Positions 574 to 64,000 of a stretch of 64,000 bases of DNA are shown here, piece after piece. Origin of the DNA: Zootoca vivipara (Eukaryota); NCBI RefSeq assembly GCF_963506605.1, contig NC_083288.1, positions 28,582,001-28,646,000 on the forward strand. Reading direction: 5' to 3'. Below the pieces are notes generated by a model that worked only from the letters and a program-made list of their open reading frames with translations, did no database searches and was not told the origin of the DNA. Within the stretch, counting starts at the first letter, position 1. Every line of letters begins with the position of its first letter. The translations under genes and the position numbers were made by a program.

Positions 574-1518
574 TTATGATCTATAGACAAAATATCTCAC
601 AGCTTTCCTTAATGTTTGTTTAATGTCTTTATTCCTCAGGCTGTAAACGAAAGGATTCACCAAGGGCGTTAAGACGGTGTAAAAGACAGAGCAGACCTTG
701 TTAAGGTCTCTAAGTGTTCTGGTTTTTGGTAATACGTATACAATGACTATAGTGCCATAAAAGAGTGTAACCACAATGAGGTGTGATGAGCAGGTGGAAA
801 ATGCTTTCTTCCTTCCTAAAGTGGATGGGATCCTCAGAATGGTTTTTATGATGCAGCTGTAGGAAATAAGTGTTAAAAGAAATGGCACCAATCCAAACAG
901 AGCTGAGAGAACAAAAATCAGCAGCTGTATTTTTAGGGTATCGTTACAAGACAGTTGAAGTAATGGTGCAAAATCACAGAAGAAGTGGTCAATTTCATTA
1001 GGTCCACAGAATGATAAGTGCATCATTGAAGAGGTTGTTAAACTATTAACGAGAAATCCAATGACCCAAGAACCACTTGAAAGTTGCAGGGAGAACCTGG
1101 CATTCATAATGGTGACATAATGCAATGGTTTGCAGATTGCCAGATACCGATCATAAGACATAGCAGCAAGCAGATAGCATTCTGCAGTAGCCAAGGCCCC
1201 AAAGAAATACAGTTGCATGAAACAAGAATTCACAGACATAGACTGGTTCCCAGTTATGAAACTGTTCAGCATTCTGGGCAAAATAGTTGAGATGTAGCAT
1301 GTCTCTAAAGAAGACAAATTTGCTAGGAAGAAGTACATGGGAGTGTGTAGGTGTTGATCAGCTGCAACTAAGATAACTATCAAAAGGTTTCCCAACATGG
1401 TCACGAGGTAAATCACTAGAAACACCAGGAAAAGGAGCTGAAATGAATGGATATTTCCAAATCCAAGGAGGATGAATTCTTTGACTGCTGTTTGATTGTT
1501 CCATTGTTTATTATCCAT
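574..1518 (-). CDS. Olfactory receptor, class II (OR11/OR10/OR6-like sauropsid expansion), 314 aa
   Basis: OR motifs LHTPMYFFL, MSYDRYLAICKPLHY, KAFSTCSSH, NPFVYSLRN. Likely start MDNKQWNNQT (ATG 1518, N-glycosylation site NQT) just downstream of a pyrimidine-rich TTCTGCAG acceptor at ~1547; the ORF-track extension to 1584 is probably intron. Confidence 0.95.
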   Translation of the reverse strand: MDNKQWNNQTAVKEFILLGFGNIHSFQLLFLVFLVIYLVTMLGNLLIVILVAADQHLHTPMYFFLANLSSLETCYISTILPRMLNSFITGNQSMSVNSCFMQLYFFGALATAECYLLAAMSYDRYLAICKPLHYVTIMNARFSLQLSSGSWVIGFLVNSLTTSSMMHLSFCGPNEIDHFFCDFAPLLQLSCNDTLKIQLLIFVLSALFGLVPFLLTLISYSCIIKTILRIPSTLGRKKAFSTCSSHLIVVTLFYGTIVIVYVLPKTRTLRDLNKVCSVFYTVLTPLVNPFVYSLRNKDIKQTLRKAVRYFVYRS

Positions 1519-6821: not shown

Positions 6822-9800
6822 CTGAATGAAAGGAAGAAACATTAGAATTGGGGGGGGGGGGGTAATGCTTTGCAGCCAGGAAGTCCAGTTGATGTGATGC
6901 AAAGACATTTTAGTATCAGCAGCTGACATGGCATGCAGTGTGAGCTCCTGATAGTTTGATAATATTCTCTAAAGCTGCATGTAGGACATTGACTCTAAAC
7001 CTCCTGTAGTTACAAACTGTTTACCCAGTTTTGGGATTCACACCATAAACTGAGCTCAATCTCCCTTAGGGTGGAAAGCAAACTCATCTGTTCAGTTGAG
7101 GGGGATCTGCATATCTTAGTAGCAGCCTGGCATTGGTGCCAGCATCCTCTTTTAAAAAAATGTCATCATGTGTGAGTTTGGAAGCATGGGGCTTCTTCTT
7201 ATCTCTCCTGCACCCACAAGTCCCCTCTGGGGTTCAGTGGCCAGAGCTCTTGTCCCAGCCACCACCATGTTTCTGCAGTAGAAGTATGCTGGGTCATGAA
7301 TTGGTCTTCAGTTGGCCCTCCCTGCATTAGAGAATGAACCACAAGCCAACTAAACCCTGTAGGACTTAAATTTAAGACAAACCATTATATTGATTCCACT
7401 GAGATTAATATAGCAAAATATATGCACTTGTTTGTTTAATCAGGCTGTAGAAAAATCATAGGTGTCCTCTCAACTAGACATTGAAGGTAGTATTAAAAAT
7501 TTTCCCATGCAGTTTGAACCACACTTGTTTCACTGTCACATCAAGTAAACAGTTTTGCTGGGTTTTTCAATTGCGTCAAAAACAGAAACAGTAAGGAACA
7601 ATGTCTCTAACTCACTTTCAACTATCTTAATGCCTATACTCACTAACTAAATTACCCTTCCCCAATCTCATGCCCTTCCGATATTTTGGATCATGCTGGT
7701 TGAGTGATGGGCGCTATAGTGAACATCTGGAGGACAAGAGGTTGGGGAAGGCTGGGCTAGATAAAATTCTGAGACCACTTCATTTTAATCAAATGGGTTG
7801 TGGTGATGCCTTCTGATAAAATGAATGAATTGTAAAAACAAAACAAAAACCCTTTTTACATGTACAGTCGTACCTCGGGTTACGAACACCTCAGGTTACA
7901 AACATCTCGGGTTATGAACTCTGCAAACCCGGAAATATTTTCGCCGCGCGCACGGTCGGCGCAGAAGGAGCACATGGTCTGCGCATGCGTAAAAGCAGCG
8001 CACGCAGTTTGCACATGCGCAAAATGACGCTTCGGTTATGACCATTTCGGGTTACGAACTGTGTCCCAGAATGGATTGTGTTCATAACCCACTGTATTAC
8101 CACTGTAATAGAGTATTTGCATACAGAGCAAAATAAAAAAATTCCTTCAGTAGCACCTTAAAGACCAACTAAGTTTATATTTTGGTATGAGCTTTCGTGT
8201 GCATGCACACTTCTTCAGATGTGTGCATGCACACGAAAGCTCATACCAAAATATAAACTTAGTTGGTCTTTAAGGTGCTACTGAAGGAATTTTTTTATTT
8301 TGCTTCGACTCAGACCAACACGGCTACCTACCTGTATACAGAGCATTTGCAAAGAACAAAGTCCCTCCTGATTTTTCAGATCTATAAGTGTGGGTCTGAA
8401 TTTCATAGGACATTGACTATATTCCAGGTTTTTGCAAGACATGATCTCTCCATAGCTCTTACTTGTGTAGTTAGAAAATGTTCCTTCTGGGCATACAGAA
8501 CAAGCAAAGCAACAGACAGGTTTCCCTTCAATGGCTAACTTATGCTGACCTTCAAGGCAGCTCTTGGTGCAGATGGATTGTGGCACCTAAAACAGCATGA
8601 AAACGAAGTTCAGCCAATCACGAACAAACAACCACACCCTAGGCCAACCCCAGCCTCTCTCACCACCAAAGGAACACAAGTGAATAGGAAATAGAACCCT
8701 CCCAAGCAGCGCTGACACAAATCCCCACACATACATTAAGAAGAATAGAAACACTGCCACCCCACCCCCACTCATCATGCCCCCCCTCCGCCTCTTTCCC
8801 CCTTTTCTCCCTAAGGTAACACTAATGCCTCAACAAATGAAACTGATCTGTAGAAAATGTAACTTGAAAAAGAGACATTGCACATACTTCTGTAAACCAA
8901 GAAATCTTTAATAAAAATATGTTTTCTTTTTGTTTTGTTTTTTTTAAAAAATAGAATAGAGATTCAAAAAAATGATGGGAGAAAGCAATGGTTCATGTCA
9001 GTATGTGAAAGATATTACTGAAAGACCATATGCTCTTTGTGAATATAAACAAATTTTATATATCTGGAAAAACAAATGGCTCAAAGGAAGGCTTTTTAAA
9101 AATTATTTTGTACTTTCATGGGAATCTGTATTTGTGGACATTTCCATGGGTCAAATGCACTGTGTATTTATTGAAGCTGCACACAGGATTCCCATTCTGA
9201 TTTTGGGGCTGATCCAGGGCTTCCTATCAGCCCTGATTTATCCTGGAACCAAGCCCTCAAGTGAAACAGGGGGGGGGGAGCCCTAATGCTTAAATAGGCT
9301 TGAAAACCTTATTAAACATGTGGTTGAGAGGGAGAAAAGAAGGAGATTCAGTCTCTCTTTCTCCCATCTTCCTGAACTCATGTTCAGTCAGAGTTTAAAA
9401 CCACTGCATTCCTGCACTGCAGGTGGTTGGACTAGATGACCCAAGGGATCCCTTCCAACTCTATGATTCTATCTCAAGCCCTGCTGATTCACATCAGTCA
9501 AGATGNNNNNNNNNNNNNNNNNNNNNNNNNNNNNNNNNNNNNNNNNNNNNNNNNNNNNNNNNNNNNNNNNNNNNNNNNNNNNNNNNNNNNNNNNNNNNNN
9601 NNNNNNNNNNNNNNNNNNNNNNNNNNNNNNNNNNNNNNNNNNNNNNNNNNNNNNTATTTTGAGTGAATTTATTTTAAAGAAATGCAAAAGTATGATGGAC
9701 CAGAAATAGACAGATTTTTTGATTCTCATCTACAAGTAAAGAAGTAAAGATTTATGAAATTACTACTTAGTGTGGTAGGGAGAGAAATGGCAAGTGAATG

Positions 9801-20040: not shown

Positions 20041-20732
20041 ATCCCTATGATTCATACACATGGATAGATGTAGTTCCTCAAATCGGAGGAATTCTCAGAG
20101 CCCAATGGAGCCACATGGGCTAACCAGCATTTCTCAACCTGATACCTTCCAGAAGATTTGAACTTCAACTCCTATTACCCCTGACCAATGGACATGTCAG
20201 CTGAAAAGAATTGTTGTCCAGAGCAACTGGCGGTTACCAGGATGGAGAAGACTAGGCTAACCACTTTAAAAAAACAAAAAAATAACATTCCAGTAGCACC
20301 TTAGAGACCAACTAAGTTTGTCATAGGTATGAACTTTCGTGTGCATGCACACTTCTTGAGATACACTGAAACAGACCCTTATGTATAGTCAGAGGGTGGG
20401 GAGGGGTATTACTCAGAAGGGTGGTGAGAATGGGTGATTGGCTGATAGGAGTGGTAAACCTGTTGACGACTGTTAACGATTGCAATTGGTATTGCAGGAA
20501 AAAGCAATGGGTGAGATGGCTAATGACTAATGACATGTATAATGACTGAGATAAGAATCCAATGTCTTTATTCAGACCAGGTCTCTCCATGGTTTTAAGC
20601 TTGGTAATGAGTTGCTATTCAGCAACTTCTCTTTTTTTCCCCAAATTATTTTTTATTGATTTTATATAAAAAAACATAAACAAAGAAAAAAAGAGAGAAA
20701 CAAAGCAATTCACAGTAATTCCATCATTAAGA

Positions 20733-20832
20733 CGAAGTGTATCTGACGAAGTGTGCATGCACACGAAAGCTCATACCAAAATAAAAACTTAGTTGGTCTT
20801 TAAGGTGCTACTGAAGGATTTTTTTTATTTTG
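20733..20832 (+). ncRNA. Solo 100-nt Penelope pLTR insert carrying a minimal type I hammerhead ribozyme
   Basis: GTAT-CTGACGA-A-GTGTG(CATG)CACAC-GAAA-GC-TC-ATAC; exact 14-bp TSD TTCCATCATTAAGA at 20719-20732 and 20833-20846. Confidence 0.8.
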
Positions 20833-21035
20833 TTCCATCATTAAGAATAACAGGTAAAAATACAGTAAAGAGGAATATAGGTGGGGGACCCCCAAAATAT
20901 AAAAAAGATGACAAAGCGAAAAGCCTGAAAGAAAAAAGAAAAAATACAAACAATTGACATCTTATTTAATTAACATTTTGGGCTTCCCCGACCTCCCCCT
21001 TCCCGAGTTCAAATTAAATCCCTCTTATGCAACTT

Positions 21036-21451
21036 AAAAGAAGCATGCAACCATAAAGAAGGCTGATCGCCGAAGAATTGATGCTTTTGAATTATGGTGC
21101 TGGAGGAGACTCTTGAGAGTCCCATGGACTGCAAGAAGATCAAACCTATCCATTCTTAAGGAAATCAGCCCTGAGTGCTCCCTGGAAGGACGGATCGTGA
21201 AGCTGAGGCTCCAATACTTTGGCCACCTCATGAGAAGAGAAGAATCCTTGGAAAAGACCCTGATGTTGGGAAAGATTGAGGGCACTAGGAGAAGGGGACG
21301 ACAGAGGACAAGATGGTTGGATAGTGTTCTCGAAGCTACGAACATGAGTTTGACCAAACTGCGGGAGGCAGTGCAAGACAGGAGTGCCTGGCGTGCTATG
21401 GTCCATGGGGTCACGAAGAGTCGGACACGACTAAACGACTAAACAACAACA
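21036..21451 (+). mobile_element. BovB (RTE) 3' fragment nested in element A
   Basis: Nearly identical to 32579-32983; (CAA)n tail; TSD ATGCAACTT (21027-21035 / 21452-21460). Confidence 0.93.
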
Positions 21452-21737
21452 ATGCAACTTTCATTTTTACTCGTATTTTAAACTATTTCCTTTTTTCCTT
21501 TTTACATATTTACTCAATATCCTCATCTTATCTATTACTCTTGAACCAGTTCTCTATTCTCATTCTATTTATTATTTATTTCTTTTTCTATTTAATCCCC
21601 TTAGCCTATAATTTCCCCCAAAAAATACACCTTAGCTTCATTATTCTTTCTTCTCTCATACTTAGCTTTATACATTTCAATCATATTCACCTCTCCCTCC
21701 CCTGGATTCCGGTTCCCCAGACGCATCAACAAGCTCC

Positions 21738-22349
21738 TTAAAACATTCCAGTTTCAGACCATCTTATTCCGTCCAATAAGCCCACACCAGCTCTGACCCA
21801 TTCCAACCCACACCACTCCCTCACCATTCGGTGGTGACATTCTAATTCTTTAAACCATGCCCCACACCATCCTTCCTTTTTTACCCAATGTCCGTGAATC
21901 CCAATTTTCTCTCCCCAAAAAACCAATCTGATGCCTGGATTGTGCTTCCCCTCTCTCACTGGGGAAGCACCCTTCCAGACCAAATCTTCATCAACTGCCC
22001 AAGCATTATAGTCCTTCCATGGGACTTGTTCTCCCTCTCTCACAGGTTGAACAATGTCCCAAGATCTTTCCTCTTCAAGAGCCCATTGTATTATGCAAAT
22101 GTCCTGTGCAACCCCTCTCACTGGTTGCACTAGGTTACAGTCCTTCTGCTCCTCTTTTTGCTCTTCTTTTTTAGGCTTAATAATGTCCACACATTCCTTG
22201 TCCTTAGCTTGTGGCTCATCCTCTGTTGGGGAATCTGATTGTTCCCTTTTGCCTGAACGTAGTTCATATAATATTTCATGAAGTTGTTTTAAGATAAATT
22301 GTAAACAGTCTAATTCTGCAGAGGAAGCTGATGTTTTGTCTACTTCCAT
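21738..22349 (-). CDS. Element A ORF, ~203 aa acidic protein of unknown function
   Basis: First ATG MEVDK; amphipathic helix LQFILKQLHEILYEL, E/K-rich middle, three (V/S)(Q/)PVR(E)G-type repeats, Trp-rich C terminus with GVG. Coding status unproven. Confidence 0.45.
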   Translation of the reverse strand: MEVDKTSASSAELDCLQFILKQLHEILYELRSGKREQSDSPTEDEPQAKDKECVDIIKPKKEEQKEEQKDCNLVQPVRGVAQDICIIQWALEEERSWDIVQPVREGEQVPWKDYNAWAVDEDLVWKGASPVREGKHNPGIRLVFWGEKIGIHGHWVKKEGWCGAWFKELECHHRMVREWCGLEWVRAGVGLLDGIRWSETGMF

Positions 22350-24114
22350 TTTGAGTCTCAAATTTCATGGGAAAGGCATGAGTTGCAGGACCTAAGACAG
22401 TGCTATTTCTTGTATCCAAAATTCCAAGCATAAAGTTTGTATCTGGACTGGTTCCAACTCTTATTTTTAGCTCAATTTCTCACATTCAAATACAATTATT
22501 CATGCTATTCACAGTCCTGTTGTTTTGACAGCTTATACAGTTCAACAGTTCACAATAATAGAAAGTTTCCTTTCCTGTATGATGTCATAATGGTGGCTCG
22601 CCTAGGCCTCTCGGGTCCTGCTCCCAGCCTACAGAAGGGTCTTTCCCAGACCAAAATTACAGATTTTTTTTGCAGGGTTTACACTCAATCAATTTCTTCC
22701 CATTGCCCTGCAGCAAGGAGACAGATTTTAAGTCCGCTTTTTAGGGAAATTTAAAACTTTCTGTCAAACGTTTCGGCTGCAGGCAAGATAGCTGCATCAC
22801 ACACACTCAGTGGGGGGAGATCGACCTCCGTTCTTTTTAATCTCCTCCCATGGCCAAATTCTTCTCAAATCAACAGCAATTTACTCACGTCCCAGGTCCA
22901 AATCTTTTAATATTGGAGGTATTTGCTGCTCAAATGCCGTCGGCTCGGAGCTTCGCACCAGAGAGATAGCGAATCGACTCAAGGCTCCGTCTCCCCTCAG
23001 GCTGTTCTTGGGGCTCTTAAAAAAGAGCTTACCAGGCAGCGAGGGAGACTTAAAGGAGCACCGCTGAGTCTCCATATCCCCAGAAAGCCCGATGTGGGGT
23101 TACTCCGGGGGGCCACAGTGTTTGTGTGGCTCTCCCCCCTCCTCTCTGGCGCTGGGGTTCTTGGAGACCGAGGTTTCCCTCGCCGATCGGTAATGGCAGC
23201 AGACCGGAAGCTGCAATTCAGCAACTTCTCATTCCAATCTGTTTCTGAATTTTTTCTGTAATAAGAAAGCTATTTTGAGATCTTGTATAGAATGTCCTGG
23301 GAGATTGAAGTGTTCTCCTACTGGTTTCTCTGTCTTGTGATTCCTGATGTCAGATTTATGTCCATTTATCCTTTGGCGTAGGGTTTGGGCTGTTTGTACA
23401 AGAATTTTGTCAAGAAGTAATTTGAGAAGGCTGGAAAAACATATTCCACACATGAACTATATAATCTCAATATAAACCATCTTACTCATAAAACAATACG
23501 ATATCACTTAGGAGCCACGTATCTGAGGTAGAAATGTCAGGTCTGGCCAAAGGGTGGTCTTATTTATAGCTTCACTTAAACACTCCTGACAGAATTCTAG
23601 CCACTTTCACTGCAACATTTTTTTTCTTAATACATCACTTCATTGCTGTAATTCTGATGATCCTCAGCTGAATATGGGGCATGAGGGAATTTACCTAGGT
23701 GCTTCAGTAATTGCAAAGTAGATAGAAAACTAATTCCACCCAGAAGAACTAGGTGAACTGTGGTAAATTCTTTTTTTTTTTAATTTAAGCTTGATACAGG
23801 CCAAACCAAACTAAAGCAAGTGACAGATTGTCTCTACCCAGATGTCCCCAACTATTGTTTACATTCTCCAGTCCTTGTTCCATGCGCCAACATCATCTGA
23901 AGTTATGATATCATAATAATTCATTTCTACATTTACTCTGTGGATGTGGAATCTCCCTGAAGAGATACAAAAATCTGCTCTATTTTTGTATCTCTTCAGG
24001 AAGGAAGCAAAACATATCTGTTTTCAGAGACCTCAGTCTGCAAGATGTACATTTCAGCCTTGTATTTTTTCTTAAGTTGCTAATTTTCCCCTGTTCAATG
24101 CCACCAATATTCTC

Positions 24115-29276: not shown

Positions 29277-30230
29277 ACAAAAAAATAACCTTCCAGTAGC
29301 ACCTTAGAGACCAACTAAGTTTGTCATAGGTATGAACTTTCGTGTGCATGCACACTTCTTGAGATACACTGAAACAGACCCTTATGTATAGTCAGAGGGT
29401 GGGGAGGGGTATTACTCAGAAGGGTGGTGAGAATGGGTGATTGGCTGATAGGAGTGGTAAACCTGTTGACGACTGTTAACGATTGCAATTGGTATTGCAG
29501 GAAAAAGCAATGGGTGAGATGGCTAATGACTAATTACCAGGATGGAGAAGACGAGGATAACCACTTTTTTAAAAAACAAAAAAGTAAAATAGAAAATCCT
29601 TCCAGTAGCACCTTAGATACCAACTAAGTTTGTCATTGGTATGAGCTTTCGTGTGCATGCACACTTCTTCAGATGCACTGAAACAGAAGTCACCAGACCC
29701 TTATATCTAGTAAGAGGGTGGGGAGGGGTATGACTCACAAGGGTGGTAGGAATGGGTGATTGGGTGATAGGAGTGGTAAACCTGTTGACGACTCTTAACG
29801 ACTGCAATTGGTATTGCAGGAAAAAGCAAGGTGTGAGATGGCTAAAGATAGCTTTATCATGTATAATGACTGAGATAAGAACCCAATGTCTTCATTCAGA
29901 CCAGGTCTCTCCATGGTTTTAAGCTTGGTAATGAGTTGCAATTCAGCAACTTCTCTTTCCAGTCTGTTTCTGAATTTTTTCTGTAATAAGACAGCTACTT
30001 TGAGATCTTGTATACAATGTCCTGGGAGATTGAAGTGTTCTCCTACTGGTTTCTCTGTCTTGTGATTCCTGATGTCAGATTTATATCCATTTATCCTTTG
30101 GCGTAGGGTTTGGCCTGTTTGTCCAATATAGGGAGCTGAAGGACACTGTTGGCATTTGATGGCATACACAATGTTAGAAGATGAGCAATTAAATAGTCCT
30201 GAGATGGTATGTTTGATGTTGTTGGGGCCA
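29277..30230 (-). mobile_element. Penelope-like element 3' fragment with GIY-YIG endonuclease remnant and a duplicated end
   Basis: ORF 29795-30169 VYAIKCQQC...YIGQT...LRQRI...HF...E..E...G LN matches the PLE GIY-YIG domain; pLTR and hammerhead motif present twice (~29330 and ~29640). Confidence 0.9.
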
Positions 30231-32971
30231 GCATCCTGGGCATCAGTGAACTAAAATGGAAGGGAATGGGCGAATTCAGTTCGGATGACTATCATATCTA
30301 CTACTGTGGGCAAGAATCCTGTAGCAGAAATGGAGTGGCCCTCATAGTCAACAAAAGAGTGGCAAAAGCTGTAATGGGATGCAATCTCAAAAATGACAGA
30401 ATGATCTCGATACGAATCCAAGGCAGACCTTTTAACATCACAGTAATCCAAGTTTATGCACCAACTACCGGTGCTGAAGAAAGTGAAATTGACCAGTTCT
30501 ATGAAGACTTACAACACCTTCTAGAAATGACACCAAAGAAGGATGTTCTTCTCATTACAGGGGACTGGAATGCTAAAGTAGGGAATCAAGAGATAAAAGG
30601 AACAACTGGCAAGTTTGGCCTTGGAGTTCAAAATGAAGCAGGGCAAAGGCTAATAGAGTTCTGTCAAGAGAACAAGCTGGTCATCACAAACACTCTCTTC
30701 CAACAACACAAGAGACGACTCTACACATGGATATCACCAAATGGGCAGCATCGAAATCAGATTGATTATATTCTCTGCAGCCAAAGATGGAGAAGCTCTA
30801 TACAGTCAGCAAAAACAAGACCTGGAGCTGACTGTAACTCAGATCATCAGCTTCTTATAGCAAAATTCCAGCTTAAACTGAAGAAAGTAGGAAAAACCAC
30901 TGGGCCAGTAAGATACAATCTGAATCAAATCCCTTATGAATACACAGTGGAAGTGAGGAACAGGTTTAAGGATTTAGATTTGGTGGACAGAGTGCCTGAA
31001 GAACTATGGATGGAGGCTCGTAACATTATACAGGAGGCAGCAATGAAAACCATCCCAAGGAAAAGGAAATGCAAGAAAGCAAAATGGCTGTCCAACGAGG
31101 CCTTACAAATAGCGGAGGAGAGGAGGCAAGCAAAATGCAAGGGAGATAGGGAAAGATACAGGAAACTGAATGCAGATTTCCAAAAAACAGCAAGGAGAGA
31201 CAAGAGGGTCTTCTTAAATGAGCAATGCAAAGAAATAGAGGAAAACAATAGAATGGGGAAAACCAGAGATCTGTTCAAGAAAATTGGAGATATGAAAGGA
31301 ACATTTCGTACAAAGATTACCATAATCAAGGACAAAAGTGGTAAGGACCTAACAGAAGCAGAACACATCAAGAAGAGGTGGCAAGAATACACAGAGGAAT
31401 TATACCAGAAAGATATGGAGGTCTCGTACACCTCAGGTAGTGTGGTTGCTGGCCTTGAGCCAGACATCTTGGAGAGTGAAGTCAAATGGGCCTTAGAAAG
31501 CATTGCTAATAACAAGGCCAGTGGAAGTGATGATATTCCAGCTGAACTGTTTAAAATTTTAAAAGATGATGCTGTTAAGGTGCTACACCCAATATGCCAG
31601 CAAGTTTGGAAAACTCAGCAATGGCCAGAGGATTGGAGAAGATCAGTCTACATCCCGATTCCAAAGAAGGGCAGTGCCAAAGAATGCTCCAACTACCGCA
31701 CAATTGCGCTCATTTCACACGCTAGCAAGGTTATGCTTAAAATTCTACAAGGCAGGCTTAGGCAGTATGTGGACCGAGAACTCCCAGAAGTGCAAGCTGG
31801 ATTTCGAAGGGGCAGAGGAACCAGAGACCAAATAGCAAACATGCGCTGGATTATGGAGAAAGCTAGAGAGTTCCAGAAAAACGTCTACTTCTGCTTCATT
31901 GACTATGCAAAAGCCTTTGACTGTGTCGACCACAGCAAACTATGGCAAGTTCTTAAAGAAATGGGAGTGCCTGATCACCTCATCTGTCTCCTGAGAAATC
32001 TCTATGTGGGACAAGAAGCTACAGTTAGAACTGGATATGGAACAACTGATTGGTTCAAAATTGGGAAAGGAGTACGACAAGGTTGTATATTGTCTCCCTG
32101 CTTATTTAACTTATATGCAGAATTCATCATGCGAAAGGCTGGACTAGATGAATCCCAAGCCGGAATTAAGATTTCTGGAAGAAATATCAACAACCTCAGA
32201 TATGCAGATGACACAACCTTGATGGCAGAAAGCGAGGAGGAATTAAAGAACCTTTTAATGAGGGTGAAAGAGGAGAGCGCAAAATATGGTCTGAAGCTCA
32301 ACATCAAAAAAACCAAGATCATGGCCACTGGTCCCATCACCTCCTGGCAAATAGAAGGGGAAGAAATGGAGGCAGTGAGAGATTTTACTTTCTTGGGCTC
32401 CTTGATCACTGCAGATGGTGACAGCAGTCACGAAATTAAAAGACGCCTGCTTCTTGGGAGAAAAGCAATGACAAACCTAGACAGCATCTTAAAAAGCAGA
32501 GACATCACCTTGCCGACAAAGGTCCGTATAGTTAAAGCTATGGTTTTCCCAGTAGTGATGTATGGAAGTGAGAGTTGGACCATAAAGAAGGCTGATCGCC
32601 GAAGAATTGATGCTTTTGAATTATGGTGCTGGAGGAGACTCTTGAGAGTCCCATGGACTGCAAGAAGATCAAACCTATCCATTCTTAAGGAAATCAGCCC
32701 TGAGTGCTCCCTGGAAGGACAGATCGTGAAGCTGAGGCTCCAATACTTTGGCCACCTCATGAGAAGAGAAGAATCCTTGGAAAAGACCCTGATGTTGGGA
32801 AAGATTGAGGGCACTAGGAGAAGGGGACGACAGAGGACAAGATGGTTGGACAGTGTTCTCGAAGCTACGAACATGAGTTTGACCAAACTGCGGGAGGCAG
32901 TGCGAGACAGGAGTGCCTGGCGTGCTATGGTCCATGGGGTCACGAAGAGTCGGACACGACTAAACGACTAA
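30209..32971 (+). CDS. BovB endonuclease/reverse transcriptase ORF (920 aa; first ~8 codons come from flanking antisense Penelope DNA)
   Basis: Uninterrupted ORF; the N-terminal endonuclease motif (TWNV) region is missing. Confidence 0.9.
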   Translation: MFDVVGASILGISELKWKGMGEFSSDDYHIYYCGQESCSRNGVALIVNKRVAKAVMGCNLKNDRMISIRIQGRPFNITVIQVYAPTTGAEESEIDQFYEDLQHLLEMTPKKDVLLITGDWNAKVGNQEIKGTTGKFGLGVQNEAGQRLIEFCQENKLVITNTLFQQHKRRLYTWISPNGQHRNQIDYILCSQRWRSSIQSAKTRPGADCNSDHQLLIAKFQLKLKKVGKTTGPVRYNLNQIPYEYTVEVRNRFKDLDLVDRVPEELWMEARNIIQEAAMKTIPRKRKCKKAKWLSNEALQIAEERRQAKCKGDRERYRKLNADFQKTARRDKRVFLNEQCKEIEENNRMGKTRDLFKKIGDMKGTFRTKITIIKDKSGKDLTEAEHIKKRWQEYTEELYQKDMEVSYTSGSVVAGLEPDILESEVKWALESIANNKASGSDDIPAELFKILKDDAVKVLHPICQQVWKTQQWPEDWRRSVYIPIPKKGSAKECSNYRTIALISHASKVMLKILQGRLRQYVDRELPEVQAGFRRGRGTRDQIANMRWIMEKAREFQKNVYFCFIDYAKAFDCVDHSKLWQVLKEMGVPDHLICLLRNLYVGQEATVRTGYGTTDWFKIGKGVRQGCILSPCLFNLYAEFIMRKAGLDESQAGIKISGRNINNLRYADDTTLMAESEEELKNLLMRVKEESAKYGLKLNIKKTKIMATGPITSWQIEGEEMEAVRDFTFLGSLITADGDSSHEIKRRLLLGRKAMTNLDSILKSRDITLPTKVRIVKAMVFPVVMYGSESWTIKKADRRRIDAFELWCWRRLLRVPWTARRSNLSILKEISPECSLEGQIVKLRLQYFGHLMRREESLEKTLMLGKIEGTRRRGRQRTRWLDSVLEATNMSLTKLREAVRDRSAWRAMVHGVTKSRTRLND

Positions 32972-32983
32972 ACAACAACAACA
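30232..32983 (+). mobile_element. BovB (RTE-clade) LINE, slightly 5'-truncated
   Basis: AP endonuclease motifs (ILGISE, VYAPT, GDWNAK, IDYI, SDH), RT motifs (QAGFR, GVRQGCILSP, YADD), C-terminal GVTKSRTRL and (CAA)n tail; no TSD seen. Confidence 0.97.
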
Positions 32984-49904: not shown

Positions 49905-51934
49905 GATTGAGGATAATGTGGGGGGTGGTGAGGATGCTTCACTAACATAGATTTAATTATTTGAATGTTTTCCATTGTCTTCTATTATATCTGCATGATG
50001 TAGTTAGTTGAAATCTTAATCAGTTATCTTTTGCATATGCTTTTTCTCATTGAATCTGGACTATGCCAGTCTAAACAGCAGGAGCAGTCGCAAACGACAC
50101 AATGTTCAATAATACAATATAAATTCCCTGCACACAGAAAACTGGGATGTCAAACAGAATAGTGAGATGTTAACCTATACTGAGATTAATGTGTGCTAGA
50201 CTGAATGTTCAACTCATTCTTTTTCTGAGGTGGGATGAATAAAAGGGAGTGAAAATTGTTGTGAAACTTCAACACAAGCACTTGTTTTGGTTGTTTTTGC
50301 GAACACTTGTTTCATGATACCAGATTCCCTCCCACTAGGAGTCCCCTCAAAGCAATTCCTATCATTATATAGCATCGTTCTATGGTAAAGCACCAGTAAT
50401 CAGTTCTGTGAGGAAAAACATCACCAAAAAAATAATTTAAAAAATGAAACGGGTGTTCCAGTTTTGCCATGTACAAATGTGGAAACTAATTGGGGTGGAT
50501 ATGTTTTGCCTCTTAATTATATGTTTCTACTTGACAGGCTAAATTTCTGAGATCAGAGAATGTATTTCTATAGATAAACTTATTTATTAATAATGTTTAT
50601 ATCCAACCCTTCATGAATATAGAAAGCAGGTGGGATCTGGAATTTTTGTGAGAATTAGGCATAAGTTATATAAGTTCTCCTGGTTGGAGGACTGCCATTT
50701 TAAACATGTGAAAGACATAATGAGATGATATCTGTTCATTCTTGCATTCTCTATCTATGTTTATCCTCTCTCTCCCACCCGACCAGTGGTCTCCCTTGGG
50801 TAGAATCTTCATTTGCAGTCAACAATCAACAATTGGGGGCTTTTGTGTTCTGCTTGGCTTTTCCCTGTGCAGATACAAATATAAATACAAATGAATATAT
50901 TCAGTATTTCAGAGCCTTCTTTTCAATAGTATAGACAGATCAGTGATGTCACCTGGCCTTACAAACATCATGATACAAAGAACTTTCTAGAAATGGACTT
51001 GAGAAGGTGTTGCCCTCAGCAGCAGGTACACTGAGATTTTGGGTAAAATTGCTTTAGGTAGCCTTGCGACCACCAATTTACACTCATTCCAGGAATTTTT
51101 CACTCATTTAGGATCTTATTGATGATTCCTCAATGGGAACAATCCTAAATGAGAAGAGAAACAAGTTTTCCTGATAGACAGCTCCCCATTATTACAGATT
51201 ACCTTGCAATGCACTCAGTTCTCTCCCATTATTCTCAGGATTTCATTAATTTTTAATTTCATTCAATTAGGTTTTCGACTGCTTATAAGAGGGAGAATTT
51301 TGCAAATTTTATACCACACAACATTGTTCAAAAGATGGATATCAGACATGAGCATTTATTTTTTTGACTAAATTTTTAAGGATCTCTGACTCAGTATGTT
51401 ATCTTTTACTTATAGAAAACATGACTCTCTTTCTACAGTCAATATAAAACAATTTATTTTTATTCCACACTGTTAAGTGTAATTTCTCCTATTATGGATT
51501 TGTAGGGAACCAGATCTGTCGCACAACAGCACAAGCCAATTTTCTTTCTTCACTTTTGCACCCTGAATATGCCTTTCAGTGATTGAATCTCACTCCCAAA
51601 TAATGGCAGTTTGACAGTGCCCTTCTTCCAAGTCGATGATTTTCTGCAGCTCATGAGAAGTGAACAAACACATTACATAGCAACTTGTTAAGAGATGCAA
51701 CAAAAAAAAATCCAAGCACTGGTGTATGTGTGTCGAATGATGGTTGCTCAATTCCTGTGTGGGGATGGGGGGGGGGACACCTAATTTTTTAATTACTCAG
51801 TACGTGACTTCCTATCTGTAGATGCATCATTTGAAAAACCCAGAATGGCAAAACGTAACAGGTATCGCCGAATTCTTTCTCCTTGGATTTAGGAACGTTG
51901 AGAACGTGAATATACTCCTCTTTCTGTTATTCCT

Positions 51935-54039
51935 TTTTTTAATAATAATTTTTATTGGTTTTTATATAGACAAGACAAACAAAAAGTACAATATAAATTC
52001 TGTCCCTTCATCCCCTCCCCCCCACCGGCCCGCTTCTGCCACCAGCAACACCCACGGTGGTGGAGAGTCAAAGGGGTCCATTTTAAGGCTAGGTTCGACC
52101 TCCCCCCCTCTCCTCCCCCCCCCAGTCCCTCCCCTGCCACTGAAGGGACGGGGACGGAGGAGCACTGAGGTTTGGTTTACTCCCTGCTTCTCCTTCAACA
52201 CAACCAACAAACAAACAATAAAACAATAACATAATCTAAATCCTACTTCCTTAACATTGTATTTGTGACTCCCTCAATTCTCTTCTTCCTGGTTTTCTTA
52301 ATTTCTATATCAAATTGTGGCAATTTTCGTATTCTAATTCAAAATCTTACCCTTATAATATTCACTCAATCCTCCTCCTTCTTCATGCTGCACCTCCGCC
52401 AGTCCTCTCCTGCCACCAGAGGAACCCGCAAGGCGCAGCACTTCAAAGGACATCCATTTTTGCATCTGGGTTTCCTCCCATCCCCCTCCCCTCAGGACAC
52501 CCCCTGCCACCAGGTGTTCCCAAGTGCAGAGAGGAGGAAAATGGCTCTCTGCCCAGATGCCTATCTAAACAGAAAATATTTAATACAAATCTTAAATTTT
52601 TTCCTAGATCATTCTTCTTTCTCCCTCCAAAAAACCTCAATTTTCATATATATTCATTTCCCTAATCAAAATCTTAACTTTATACTTAAAAACACTCTCC
52701 TTCCCCTCCCCTGATGCTCTTCCCCCAACTGGATCAACATTTCCTTTTACAGGCCAAGATTTCTTAAACCGTTGTTCAGCTACCAAAAGTTTCTAACTAA
52801 AAAGTTTTTACCCCACACCACATCTTTCCCCTTTCCAAATCCAGGCCTCTAACTCCCCCTCCTTCTGCATTTCCCTTTCCACCAACACACATCTCCATAT
52901 TTCAGTCCCTCCAGGTTCCTCCATTTCTTGAGTCTTCTTTTCACATTGTTGCTCCTTGCTTTCATCTTCTTTTTTTCCAATTCCTTGTTGTGCAACATCC
53001 AGATCTTGTTTTTTACAATCCCAGTCAGTTTTAGTAAAGTCAGTTTTGATAAAGTCTTCTACTTCTTGTTCCTTAATCTCACTTTCAAAGTCATTCTCAA
53101 AATCCTGTTCTTGAGCCACAGTCTCTGCCCATGACGAGCTGGAATGTTGCAGTGTCTTATTCATGTCCTTCAATATTTCCAAGTAACCCAACACCGCTTC
53201 CTGGAAGGCCGGAGTATACATTGTTTTCATTCCTCTCCTAACCACAAGCAGTCAGGAGGTTTGCAAACAAAGCAGACAAAGGGCACTGGAAATTTCCTTT
53301 CAGCTACACGGTGTCTCCATCTTGGCTGATCCTTCCCATTGTTTTAACTAATCCACAAGTCAAATCAAAGTTCAGTCTGTCACAGCTTCAAACATCAGAA
53401 ATATCTTATACCGCAACGATTTAGCAGATTTTCCAAATCATTTTGCAGCTTTGACAGCTTTTGACAGCTGTCAACGCACCTTCCCCTTAGGACCTTGCTG
53501 ATCCTCAAGGGGTGCCAGTTCCAGGGTCTAGGAAAGGTTTGCGAAGTCTTTCATTCTTTTGGGATCCACAGTCAAATAGTATCCCTTTGATTTAGGATTG
53601 CATAATTAATGTGCCTCCTAATTGTCCATTAGGAAGAGATCGACTTCCGTTTTTTAAATCTCTTCCTTTTCCCCAATCTTTGCCGAGATTAACAGAAAGT
53701 CCAATTAGAGATTCCACTTACTTTCCTTCCTTTTGATTCCTTTGGAAGAATCCACAGCTAACTGGTAGAAGACTTGAGGCTTCGCTTCTCGGAGGCAAGA
53801 TATCGTCCGAAAATGGCTCCCGCGACTCCACTCCGCCGGCTCACAGGGTCTCTATTGATTCCCTGGGCAGCAGAGGAATCGCGGACCGGAGCCTGCCGGA
53901 CCTGCTCCCCAGGGACGCTCTTCCCTGGGTTCTTGTGGGGAATCCGCTCGCCCCGCGGCATTCCCCCCCCTCCGCGATACCAGGGACCTTGGAGCTCGAG
54001 GTCCCTGCGTCCTCTCCCCAGCGCTGTAGACCGGAAGTC
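51935..54039 (-). mobile_element. Non-autonomous poly(A) retroelement B (L1-dependent, HAL1-like), 2105 bp
   Basis: Exact 18-bp TSD CCTCTTTCTGTTATTCCT (51917-51934 / 54040-54057); CpG-rich 5' end GACTTCCGGTCT; 3' end AATAAAAATTATTATT plus short poly(A); no RT. Confidence 0.85.
52808..53230 (-). CDS. Element B ORF, ~140 aa acidic protein of unknown function
   Basis: Amphipathic helix FQEAVLGYLEILKDM, very E/D/K-rich middle, Trp-containing C terminus ending GVG. Coding status unproven. Confidence 0.4.
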   Translation of the reverse strand: MKTMYTPAFQEAVLGYLEILKDMNKTLQHSSSSWAETVAQEQDFENDFESEIKEQEVEDFIKTDFTKTDWDCKKQDLDVAQQGIGKKEDESKEQQCEKKTQEMEEPGGTEIWRCVLVEREMQKEGELEAWIWKGERCGVG

Positions 54040-56089
54040 CCTCTTTCTGTTATTCCTAGTCATCTATATTGTGACTCTGTCTGGTAATCTCCTCATTGTT
54101 GCACTTGTTATGGCTGAGCAGCACCTGCACACTCCCATGTATTTCTTTCTGTCAAATTTGTCCTTCTGGGAGATATGCTACACCTCAAATATCTTACCCA
54201 GAATGCTAAACAGTTTTCTTACAGGGGACAAAACCATTTCTTTTGTGGGCTGCATCTTACAGATGCATTTATTTTCCACCCTGGCAGCTACTGAATGTTA
54301 CCTCCTGGCAGTGATGTCATATGATCGCTACCTAGCCATATGTAGACCATTGCATTATGTCATGCTTATGGACAACAGAACATGCATCCTGCTGGTTTCG
54401 GTATCCTGGTTAATTGGATCGCTGCTTATAACCATCTTAACATCTTTGTTGACCCAGCTCACTTTCTGCAGCCATTATCAAATTGACCATTTCTTTTGTG
54501 ATTTTACACCTGTAGTAAGACTGTCTTGCAGTGACACCTGGGTTATTGAAACTGCAGCTTTCATAACGTCATCCATTGGAATTCTACCCACATTTCTCAT
54601 AACTGTAACATCTTACATTTTTATCATCAGCACAATCCTGAAAATCCCATCTATGACTGGGAGGCAAAAGGCCTTTTCCACCTGCTCTTCTCATCTCACT
54701 GTAGTTTATGTTTTCTATGGATCTTTAATGTTTGTCTACATCTTACCAACAACTGGTAAATTCAAAGAACTAAATAAGGTTTTCTCCTTCTTGTACACAA
54801 TCCTAACTCCAATGGCCAATCCCTTCATATACAGCCTAAGGAACAAAGATGTAAAGGATACCCTTAGAAAAGCATTGTGCCAATTTGGTTGTTGTTTTTA
54901 TTGTATTCATTGATATCAGAGAATACCAGAAATAAGGACTGGTGTAACTGCTGTTGAAGGTCACAGAGCTCTGTCCTTTAGGCATGTGTGTTTAATTACA
55001 TGAATGGGTTTGAATTCTACTAAGTCATAGACACATTGAAATCCATGGACAAGACTGATTAAATCCATCAATTTTAATGGGTATGCTATGAGTGTGACTA
55101 AGGGCAGACCCATATCACCACGTATTTAAGGTACATGTTTTCCCCCAAATAACCTTGGGAACAGCATTTTTCCATTTACAGAGATACAATTATCATCATT
55201 TTTGACAAATACATTTCCCAGCGTTTTCTGTTGGAAACCATGTGATTTAAGTGTGGTTTGCATGTGTTTTAAATGGACAGTGTGGGTCTGCTCTTAGCTG
55301 GATTCAAACCATGATGAAGATGCTTCTCTTATTTTGCTGTTAATGGATACTGTCTACAATATGTGCTGTTACATTATATATATTTCAAAAACCTTTTAAA
55401 AAAGAATCCATTTTGCTTCTACATTGCTTTGCAGATTGTGTATCTTATATATGATCATAATGTAATGAAAAATTATATTAAATGCATTATACAATATTGT
55501 ATGCCTTAAACAAGATTATTATTGACCGGATGGTGTTAAGTAATCATTTACCCATCAAATCACAATTTGACATTTATTCCAATACTTTGCAGCAATTTTA
55601 GACTTGATGTTGTCCACTTAGGATTAGAGTAGTTGTTTTGTTCTAAAACCAAGGCCAAGCATGTGATTTGTGTTGGAACAAACTTTGAACACCCAGGTAA
55701 GGCATCAGCATTGGCTTGAAATAAAGCTCAATTGACTTTCCACAAATGCTGTTAAAGAGCAATGCATTACTTTGCACTTTGTATTGTTTCTTTGTAAATA
55801 TTTTAAGGCTGTTTCCAGTAAATCTTTGAAACTCATTCTTGTGGTGGAAAGCTATTATTCTTTTTTTTTATTCATACCCCGTCTTTTTTCTTGACAGGAC
55901 TCGAGGCATCTTACTAAAATGAGAACTGCTGAAAGTATAAAAGCATAATTTTGTATGCCTCTTTAAAATGGGTTCTGTGAAAACAAAAATCTTTTGATAT
56001 GTCATTTATATTACCCTATGAATCACAGTGATTTCAGCATCAAATATTCAAGTCTTTATTTTTTTCTAGATATCATCTAATTTATTTAT

Positions 56090-63713: not shown

Positions 63714-64000
63714 ATGCATCATTTGAAAAACCCAGAATGGCAAAACGTAACAGGTATCACCGAATTCCTTCTCCTTGGATTTAGGAACGTTGAGAACGTG
63801 AATATACTCCTCTTTTGGTTATTCCTAGTCATCTATATTGTGACTCTGTCTGGTAATCTCCTCATTGTTGCACTTGTTATGGCTGAGCAGCACCTGCAAA
63901 CTCCCATGTATTTCTTTCTGTCAAATTTGTCCTTCTTGGAGATATGCTACACCTCAAATATCTTACCCAGAATGCTAAACAGTTTTCTTACAGGGGACAA
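63714..64000 (+). CDS. Olfactory receptor, B-type, 5' part (runs off the window)
   Basis: CTGTAG|ATG MHHLKNPEWQNVTGITEFLLLGF...GNLLI...TPMYFFLSNLS, open to the window end. Confidence 0.85.
   Translation, partial: MHHLKNPEWQNVTGITEFLLLGFRNVENVNILLFWLFLVIYIVTLSGNLLIVALVMAEQHLQTPMYFFLSNLSFLEICYTSNILPRMLNSFLTGD

Follow-up and report, generated by a model that had tools for sequence, protein, structure and literature searches.

Two insertions in the genome of Zootoca vivipara, here called A and B, raise the question of how an element with one short frame and no reverse transcriptase (RT) multiplies, and why it keeps a protein at all. They lie in a window of 64,000 nt (contig NC_083288.1, positions 28,582,001 to 28,646,000), which we take to be a cluster of olfactory and vomeronasal receptor genes that also contains an RTE-type LINE. 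Its relevant features are the following.

51935..54039, minus strand: element B, an MKTMY-lineage copy complete at 2105 nt and covered over its whole length by 21 of 30 fetched loci (73-100% identity)
51917..51934: exact 18-nt TSD of B on the poly(A) side; the paralogous site at 63809 is empty
54040..54057: 18-nt TSD of B on the 5' side, an exact match to the poly(A)-side copy
53231..54039, minus strand: 5'UTR of B, almost certainly L1-derived and likely the internal Pol II promoter; alignable with the donor L1 lineage over the first ~410 nt (E 1e-18 to 1e-26 against seven donor L1s)
53631..53666, minus strand: conserved stem-loop in the 5'UTR of B, with covariation
52808..53230, minus strand: ORF of B, 140 aa, ending GVG-stop
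53147..53230, minus strand: aa 1-28 of B, the N-terminal helix, where the constraint sits
51935..52807, minus strand: 3'UTR of B with A-rich tail; AATAAA at 51951-51956; donor-like patch at 52209-52341
20632..23211, minus strand: element A, an MEVDK-lineage copy that later received two inserts, recognised by family matches, TSD, and empty sites
20613..20631: 19-nt TSD of A on the poly(A) side, differing from the 5' copy at one position; empty sites at 29937 and 58734
23212..23230: 19-nt TSD of A on the 5' side, differing from the poly(A)-side copy at one position
22350..23211, minus strand: 5'UTR of A, almost certainly L1-derived; alignable with the donor L1 lineage over the first ~670 nt (E 1e-52 to 1e-65 against eight donor L1s)
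22812..22849, minus strand: stem-loop in the 5'UTR of A, from the covariation analysis
21738..22349, minus strand: ORF of A, 203 aa, with helix at aa 10-36, acidic linker, W..xPVREG repeats, and Trp-rich end
21050..21452, plus strand: later insert of 403 nt in the 3'UTR of A, a LINE 3' end 99% identical to 32579-32981
20741..20835: later repeat insert of ~95 nt in the 3'UTR of A, with copies at 8126, 8218, and 58383
51822..54913, plus strand: olfactory-receptor gene disrupted by B; intact start in the paralogue near 63750

Two insertions with a common architecture

Both elements lie where the preliminary description had placed them, on the minus strand, with B measuring 2105 nt and A about 2.08 kb net after removal of the 403-nt LINE piece and the ~95-nt insert; the TSDs of 18-19 bp reported for them are borne out by the empty paralogous sites, the duplication being exact in B and carrying one mismatch in A. 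Such elements are mutagenic, copy B having disrupted an olfactory-receptor gene. The LINE piece in A is presumably of the RTE/BovB type. At 30209-32971 (+), the window holds a 920-aa open endonuclease and RT frame of a LINE that we likewise take to be RTE/BovB-type, the 3' end of which is 99% identical to the insert in A. The core of the ~95-nt repeat looks to us like the hammerhead ribozyme of Penelope-like elements; a search of Rfam gave no match for this repeat.

Each element has one ORF, as first claimed; the frame of A continues beyond the family's usual stop after GVG. The further claim, that the two have a common architecture without being copies of each other internally, calls for a correction. 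Pairwise, their similarity is indeed limited to a 32-nt patch near nt 370-400 (E 3e-5), but family profiles of A and B match across the first ~400 nt (E 1e-14 to 1e-26), and on the strength of these profiles the two are distant homologues, more than look-alikes.

A dispersed superfamily with L1-type insertion marks

Family searches covered the 1.44-Gb, 48-contig genome. The B query gave 46 matches from the 40 scored of 1560 candidates, and the A query 55 matches from the 40 scored of 610. TSDs of at least 10 nt flank 24 of the 30 fetched B loci (one of these, in a microsatellite, is doubtful), and the frame is open to the GVG-stop in 13. Fourteen B copies are at least 89% alike at the 3' end, eight reaching the 5' end and six being 5'-truncated, while several whole A-type copies of 1.9-2.2 kb are flanked by TSDs of 14-18 nt. 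A degenerate 22-nt motif of the 5' end has 326 exact matches genome-wide, against none for the control. Forty motif loci were picked from the first 100 listed so as to cover the motif variants, and thus do not constitute a random sample; 30 are whole elements of 1.6-2.2 kb, two are partial, two internally deleted, and four fragments or chimeras. The remaining two are 6-kb decayed L1s with the same start as the elements. Together with the 21 whole copies among the 30 B loci, this agrees with the expectation that copies are typically full-length, about 2 kb, and flanked by TSDs.

At least five lineages can be distinguished, namely A, B, C (205-aa ORF), D (165 aa), and E. Their members are about 1.7-2.2 kb long, RT-less, mostly full-length, and endowed with an ORF of 135-205 aa; among 89 element loci, an ORF of at least 90 aa starts at nt 600-1000 in 61, and the GVG-stop is present in 31. 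This stop is common to the five lineages, with varying third positions and stop codon, and copies within young subfamilies are 95-98% alike. Twenty-three copies have TSDs of 13-24 nt; in 21 of them a pyrimidine precedes the TSD, and in 14 the TSD opens with four purines, a pattern that fits the YYYY/RR target rule of the L1 endonuclease as set out in the source used here (PMC4859970). Only one ORF exceeds 120 aa on the element strand and no ORF2/RT frame is found there, which sets the elements apart from autonomous L1s. The genome thus contains what had been proposed from the window, a lineage of RT-less elements with one ORF that has diversified and bears the insertion marks of L1.

Two other identities were rejected. 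A processed pseudogene, above all a single-copy one, is contradicted by hundreds of 5' ends with subfamily structure, by the L1 UTRs, and by the want of a protein relative in the databases searched; a SINE with a Pol III head is contradicted by a head that is L1 5'UTR, by the constrained ORF, and by the absence of a real Rfam match in A. Among the other loci, L202, L038, L042, L194, and L195 hold TSD-flanked copies reduced to 0.4-1.1 kb by internal deletions with differing breakpoints, the first retaining only the 5' 90 nt and 3' 300 nt, and family members are inserted antisense within or beside L1 copies at L066, L197, and L273. At the 5' junction of L005, the element's first ~20 nt are also present inverted just upstream of its start. 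Locus L013 carries at 673-1419 (-) an intron-less 248-aa frame, presumably a creatine-kinase retrocopy.

Derivation from a third L1 lineage

Young intact L1s of this genome start GACTTCCGGT, the sequence that the account consulted gives for the 5' end of lizard L1 clade 1 (PMC5381506). The elements resemble clade 1 in this 5' end, in a long 5'UTR, and in an A-rich tail; unlike them, clade 1 is described there as autonomous and ~6 kb long, with an ORF1 of ~350 aa and an ORF2 of ~1250 aa (PMC5381506), with which the young L1s here agree. Two sets of young L1s (40 and 20 loci) were nevertheless rejected as the donor, as they have in common with the elements only the start and low-complexity patches, one weak match and one nested antisense copy excepted. 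The L1 at 24115, to whose tail those of the elements had first been likened, is placed by its ORF2 end in the second young set (20 loci), a lineage other than the donor, and was rejected with it.

The donor is instead a third L1 lineage, reached through two 6-kb motif matches and a search with its ORF1. Its 5'UTR is matched over 410-670 nt by the profiles of lineages A (E to 1e-65), B (1e-26), and E (1e-98). The same three profiles match the donor 3' end, matches to the ORF2 end plus 3'UTR having E 1e-10 to 1e-14, and a profile of five donor 3' ends matches members of all five lineages. The donor-like 3'UTR patch of B reaches E 0.03 in this copy and 1e-7 in other B copies. Within lineage E, the match extends into the last ~40 codons of ORF2 as a degenerate trace. 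A tree of the first 430 nt splits 22 elements from 16 donor L1s by a 100/100 branch; since it is unrooted, a single origin is consistent with it but not proven by it. A 58-row tree gives the same split save for one row, the inner second 5' unit of the donor L1 L209. This unit, located ~850 nt into the L1 and inside its 5'UTR, groups with lineage A, whereas the true 5' end of L209 groups with the L1s, which suggests that the inner unit is an inserted or recombined element promoter.

UTRs common to the elements and one L1 lineage point to an ancient internal-deletion derivative. The elements are thus almost certainly an L1-derived non-autonomous family, and we infer one ancient internal deletion at its origin. 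The alternative of a simple internal deletion of an L1 is accordingly right in part: the elements are an old internal-deletion derivative, though more than a simple one, L1s offering no counterpart to most of the ORF.

An ORF2 frame of at least 1000 aa is missing from all 22 copies of the donor lineage. Among 150 matches of a search with the donor ORF2 end, four hold such a frame, all at no more than 80% identity; one of the four is L266, an intact sister L1 whose UTRs resemble those of the elements weakly. Among the donor 3' ends, some agree at 98-99%, so that the decay of the donor lineage, if it is dead, would be recent.

Selection on the open reading frame

The B set for dN/dS (omega) comprised 36 of 38 whole B-type copies, without L164 and L183, the frame of the latter being shortened. 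Its ORF has an omega of 0.60 (LRT 33), as against 0.77-1.14 in eight control frames, two of them with LRT 7-8; it contains 3 stop cells, against 181-388 in the control frames, and none of 2000 base shuffles stays open. Lineage A also gives 0.60 (12 copies, LRT 32; control frames 0.73-1.28), followed by E with 0.65 (9 copies), D with 0.55 (5 copies; controls noisy, 0.50-1.51), and C with 0.66 (4 copies, not significant). Low-omega control frames occur in A and B (0.73-0.80, LRT 5-11) and in the small D set (0.50). Of the shared indels, 6 of 11 within the ORF preserve the frame, as against 6 of 43 within the 5'UTR and 1 of 28 within the 3'UTR. The identical method yields an omega of 0.12 for six genomic copies of L1 ORF1, so the constraint on the element ORF is mild by comparison. 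We consider it highly probable that the ORF is translated and selected.

The amino-acid constraint is concentrated in the N-terminal helix, the first ~30 codons. The values by region in B are 0.32 for aa 1-28 (LRT 38), 0.89 for the acidic part, and 0.92 for the C-terminal part; the first 35 codons of A give 0.38 and its last 45 codons 0.71. An ORF that is not neutral, as the preliminary description had anticipated, is therefore what emerges, at about 0.6 overall and 0.32-0.38 in the helix instead of near 1. Shared changes in the B helix are 21 N/31 S and singletons 22 N/11 S (p 0.026), whereas the same test on the whole B ORF is not significant (p 0.68); one control frame has a p of 0.0135, smaller than that of the helix, and no control has an N/S below 1.5. 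A helix stands at the start of the ORF in all five lineages, and in the AlphaFold model of the A ORF (mean pLDDT 50) only helix 10-36 is confident.

A possible docking role for the helix

The reading that we favour, and regard as reasonably likely when taken whole, is that of an L1-derived RT-less superfamily whose selected helix, likely a remnant of ORF1, would dock the element's RNA on the ORF1p/ORF2p particle of a helper. Its RNA would be transcribed by Pol II from the inherited L1 5'UTR promoter, polyadenylated at the AATAAA, and, judging from TSD length, target site, and tail, copied in trans by the ORF2p of another, still-intact L1. The nascent helix is predicted to enter the coiled coil of helper ORF1p in cis and to carry its own RNA into the particle, the remainder of the protein being a putative flexible spacer that needs only an open frame. 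The docking role itself would seem to fall slightly short of an even chance. According to the study drawn on here, truncated human ORF1p that has kept its N-terminus along with the coiled coil heterodimerises with full ORF1p; the shortest fragment, of 54 aa, was undetected and gave no suppression, and longer fragments inhibited L1 (PMC5605252). Kojima's article includes a proposal of multimerisation with helper proteins for HeT-A, HAL1, and Ag-Sponge (PMC5786205). Complex prediction for the B helix with two L266 ORF1 coiled coils returned scores of 0.10 and 0.00, which speak neither for nor against docking.

Three runs of same-species RNA hold 16-31 reads per run on B, all partial, and 42-386 reads on a lineage-C copy, covering 15-30 of 30 bins in both directions. 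This shows that family sequence is present in RNA, and the reads do not demonstrate a promoter-driven transcript.

The main rival starts from the same L1-derived family and holds that translation itself keeps the RNA on ribosomes and stable, the helix acting on its own protein through self-association, localisation, or turnover, and not on helper ORF1p. This would account for the ~80% of the ORF that is near-neutral (0.89 and 0.92 in B) yet open, and for a B helix that is strongly constrained though no longer like donor ORF1. Translation alone does not, however, explain an omega of 0.32-0.38 in a helix that heads all five lineages, and we hold this explanation to be unlikely, if less so than the others considered below. 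Deleted copies that lack the ORF but are flanked by TSDs, their breakpoints differing from copy to copy, do not decide between docking and translation.

Returning to the docking reading, a bolder version of it would make the family a minimal L1 parasite: a coiled-coil tag of ~28 residues with a new tail, hooking its RNA in cis onto helper particles, radiating into at least five lineages, and continuing to jump beyond the decay of its donor by switching helpers. We offer this version tentatively and consider it rather doubtful.

Origin of the helix and of the tail

A profile of ORF1 found none of 61 element proteins (best E 0.17), and hhalign against ORF1 gives at best E 0.004 (range 0.004-0.1, probability below 9%), with reversed controls reaching E 0.054; the alignments of A, C, D, and E nevertheless all fall where the donor coiled coil begins. 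An ungapped window scan of the helix was also run against six donor ORF1s, with 100 shuffles each. The best window falls at the first ORF1 heptads in six of six donor ORF1s for lineage E (0/100 shuffles each), five for D (0-1 shuffles), four for C (0-4 shuffles), three, weakly, for A (4-14 shuffles), and none for B; the same scan against ORF2 gives no such match. Scanned against the sister L1 L266, B, D, and E have their best window further along, at similar heptads, so that the exact register is not fixed. The protein of A is homologous to those of D and E (hhalign E 4e-6), while that of B is linked only weakly (E 0.009) and is placed in the superfamily by its DNA, ORF start position, and GVG stop.

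From these likenesses, statistically weak as they are, the helix probably descends from the ORF1 coiled coil. The initial impression that the ORF is unrecognisable as L1 ORF1 is right as far as profiles go, but a few ORF1 heptads likely survive at its start. One may object that the ORF came to stand between the L1 UTRs by capture or de novo formation, the likeness being that of any amphipathic helix: the profile matches are not significant, A scores equally against the heptads of unrelated L1 ORF1s (3/100 shuffles), and the tail has no L1 match in six frames. We judge this fairly improbable, for in E and D the best donor-ORF1 window beats 99-100 of 100 shuffles at the expected place, the helix stands directly behind a homologous 5'UTR, ORF2 offers nothing comparable, and A is tied to D and E by homology.

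Beyond the helix, the acidic and Trp-rich tail has no match in any of the six frames of 12 L1s, nor was a match to the RRM or CTD found in six frames. Pfam contains no match for the element ORFs, its PF02994 being silent across the genome and controls alike and hence uninformative. A set of 5.8 billion proteins yielded no relative for B alone or for a 7-row alignment (near lengths only), and the ESM Atlas none for either ORF. The sole representative-set match of a 15-row A/D/E alignment, the unnamed tandem-repeat protein P0001, was taken as chance. These blank searches show neither the absence nor the novelty of relatives. With the helix presumed to be inherited, the tail is best read as a new protein segment that arose inside a retroelement.

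Relationship to other non-autonomous LINE derivatives

The closest counterpart is HAL1, or half-L1, of mammals, reportedly described by Smit in 1999 and by Bao and Jurka in 2010. The source used here presents it as a non-autonomous derivative of L1 with ORF1p as its sole product and several origins among mammals (PMC5753468). Like HAL1, the elements combine L1 5' and 3' parts, lack ORF2 and RT, have one ORF, and are multi-copy with TSDs and poly(A), going by the parts of the sources that treat these traits (PMC5753468, PMC5786205, PMC4859970). Unlike HAL1, which encodes ORF1p with coiled coil, RRM, and CTD, they keep at most a few heptads, their model has one confident helix, the RRM and CTD were not found, and the other ~110-170 aa of the protein are without L1 match; they also differ from mammalian HAL1 in their squamate host and in their radiation into five or more lineages. 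They function like HAL1 and lie outside it by the ORF1p definition, and we have not filed them there because the RRM, the CTD, and the greater part of the coiled coil are missing. HAL1-like parasites are thereby extended to squamates. We found no description of such a squamate family in the literature searched; Repbase, Dfam, subscription journals, or supplements may hold one.

As treated in PMC5786205, HeT-A (Jockey clade) and Ag-Sponge (CR1 clade) are like the elements in their internal-deletion origin and have proteins proposed to multimerise with the helper, but they belong to other LINE clades and keep an ORF1p equivalent, where the elements have one helix and a new tail. RIME, NARTc, Bov-A, and the Vingi derivatives, in the same source, likewise fuse 5' and 3' parts of the parent LINE by deletion, but code for no protein, whereas the elements hold an open, partly selected frame (PMC5786205). 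Why ORF1-only LINEs retain a protein is an open question, for which that source mentions multimerisation with the helper's protein as a printed proposal (PMC5786205). The family amounts to a natural deletion experiment in which selection is relaxed nearly everywhere but in a short helix; this singles out the helix as the part that matters and as a small testable unit.

Truncated human ORF1p supplies the precedent for a coiled-coil fragment pairing with full ORF1p, but its sources are described as dead single loci with an inhibitory effect in trans (PMC5605252), while the elements form a replicating family under selection. The comparison brings up the idea that the element protein is itself a trans inhibitor of L1 ORF1p, as in a defective-interfering element, freeing ORF2p or damping rival L1s. 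Besides the trans suppression of L1 by the human fragments (PMC5605252), an ORF2 frame of at least 1000 aa in 0 of 22 donor copies, beside element copies up to 98% alike, could be cited for it. An effect in trans would, however, help ORF-less cheats equally, so the frame should not stay open in five lineages, and the ORF-less deleted copies each have their own breakpoints; we regard inhibition as a poor candidate. That the ORF is a neutral remnant whose low omega reflects composition or alignment artefact, as the control frames at 0.73-0.80 (LRT up to 11) and the few, partial RNA reads on B (16-31 per run) might suggest, is very improbable in view of 3 stop cells against 181-388 in controls, no open frame in 2000 base shuffles, and a post-GVG stop common to five lineages despite varying third positions.

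A stem-loop in the 5'UTR

The stem-loop noted early on, which lies near nt 365-405 of the elements, proves well founded, with two-sided changes in 6 of 10 predicted pairs across 12 sequences. At ~nt 385 stands the conserved motif that folds into this covarying hairpin; it is complementary, besides, to the first 8 nt of the element. Predicted folds prefer the hairpin in A and the long-range pairing in B, D, and E. The full motif is present in 0 of 19 L1s of another lineage, and in 16 of 17 donor L1s the GGAAGT core occupies a comparable position.
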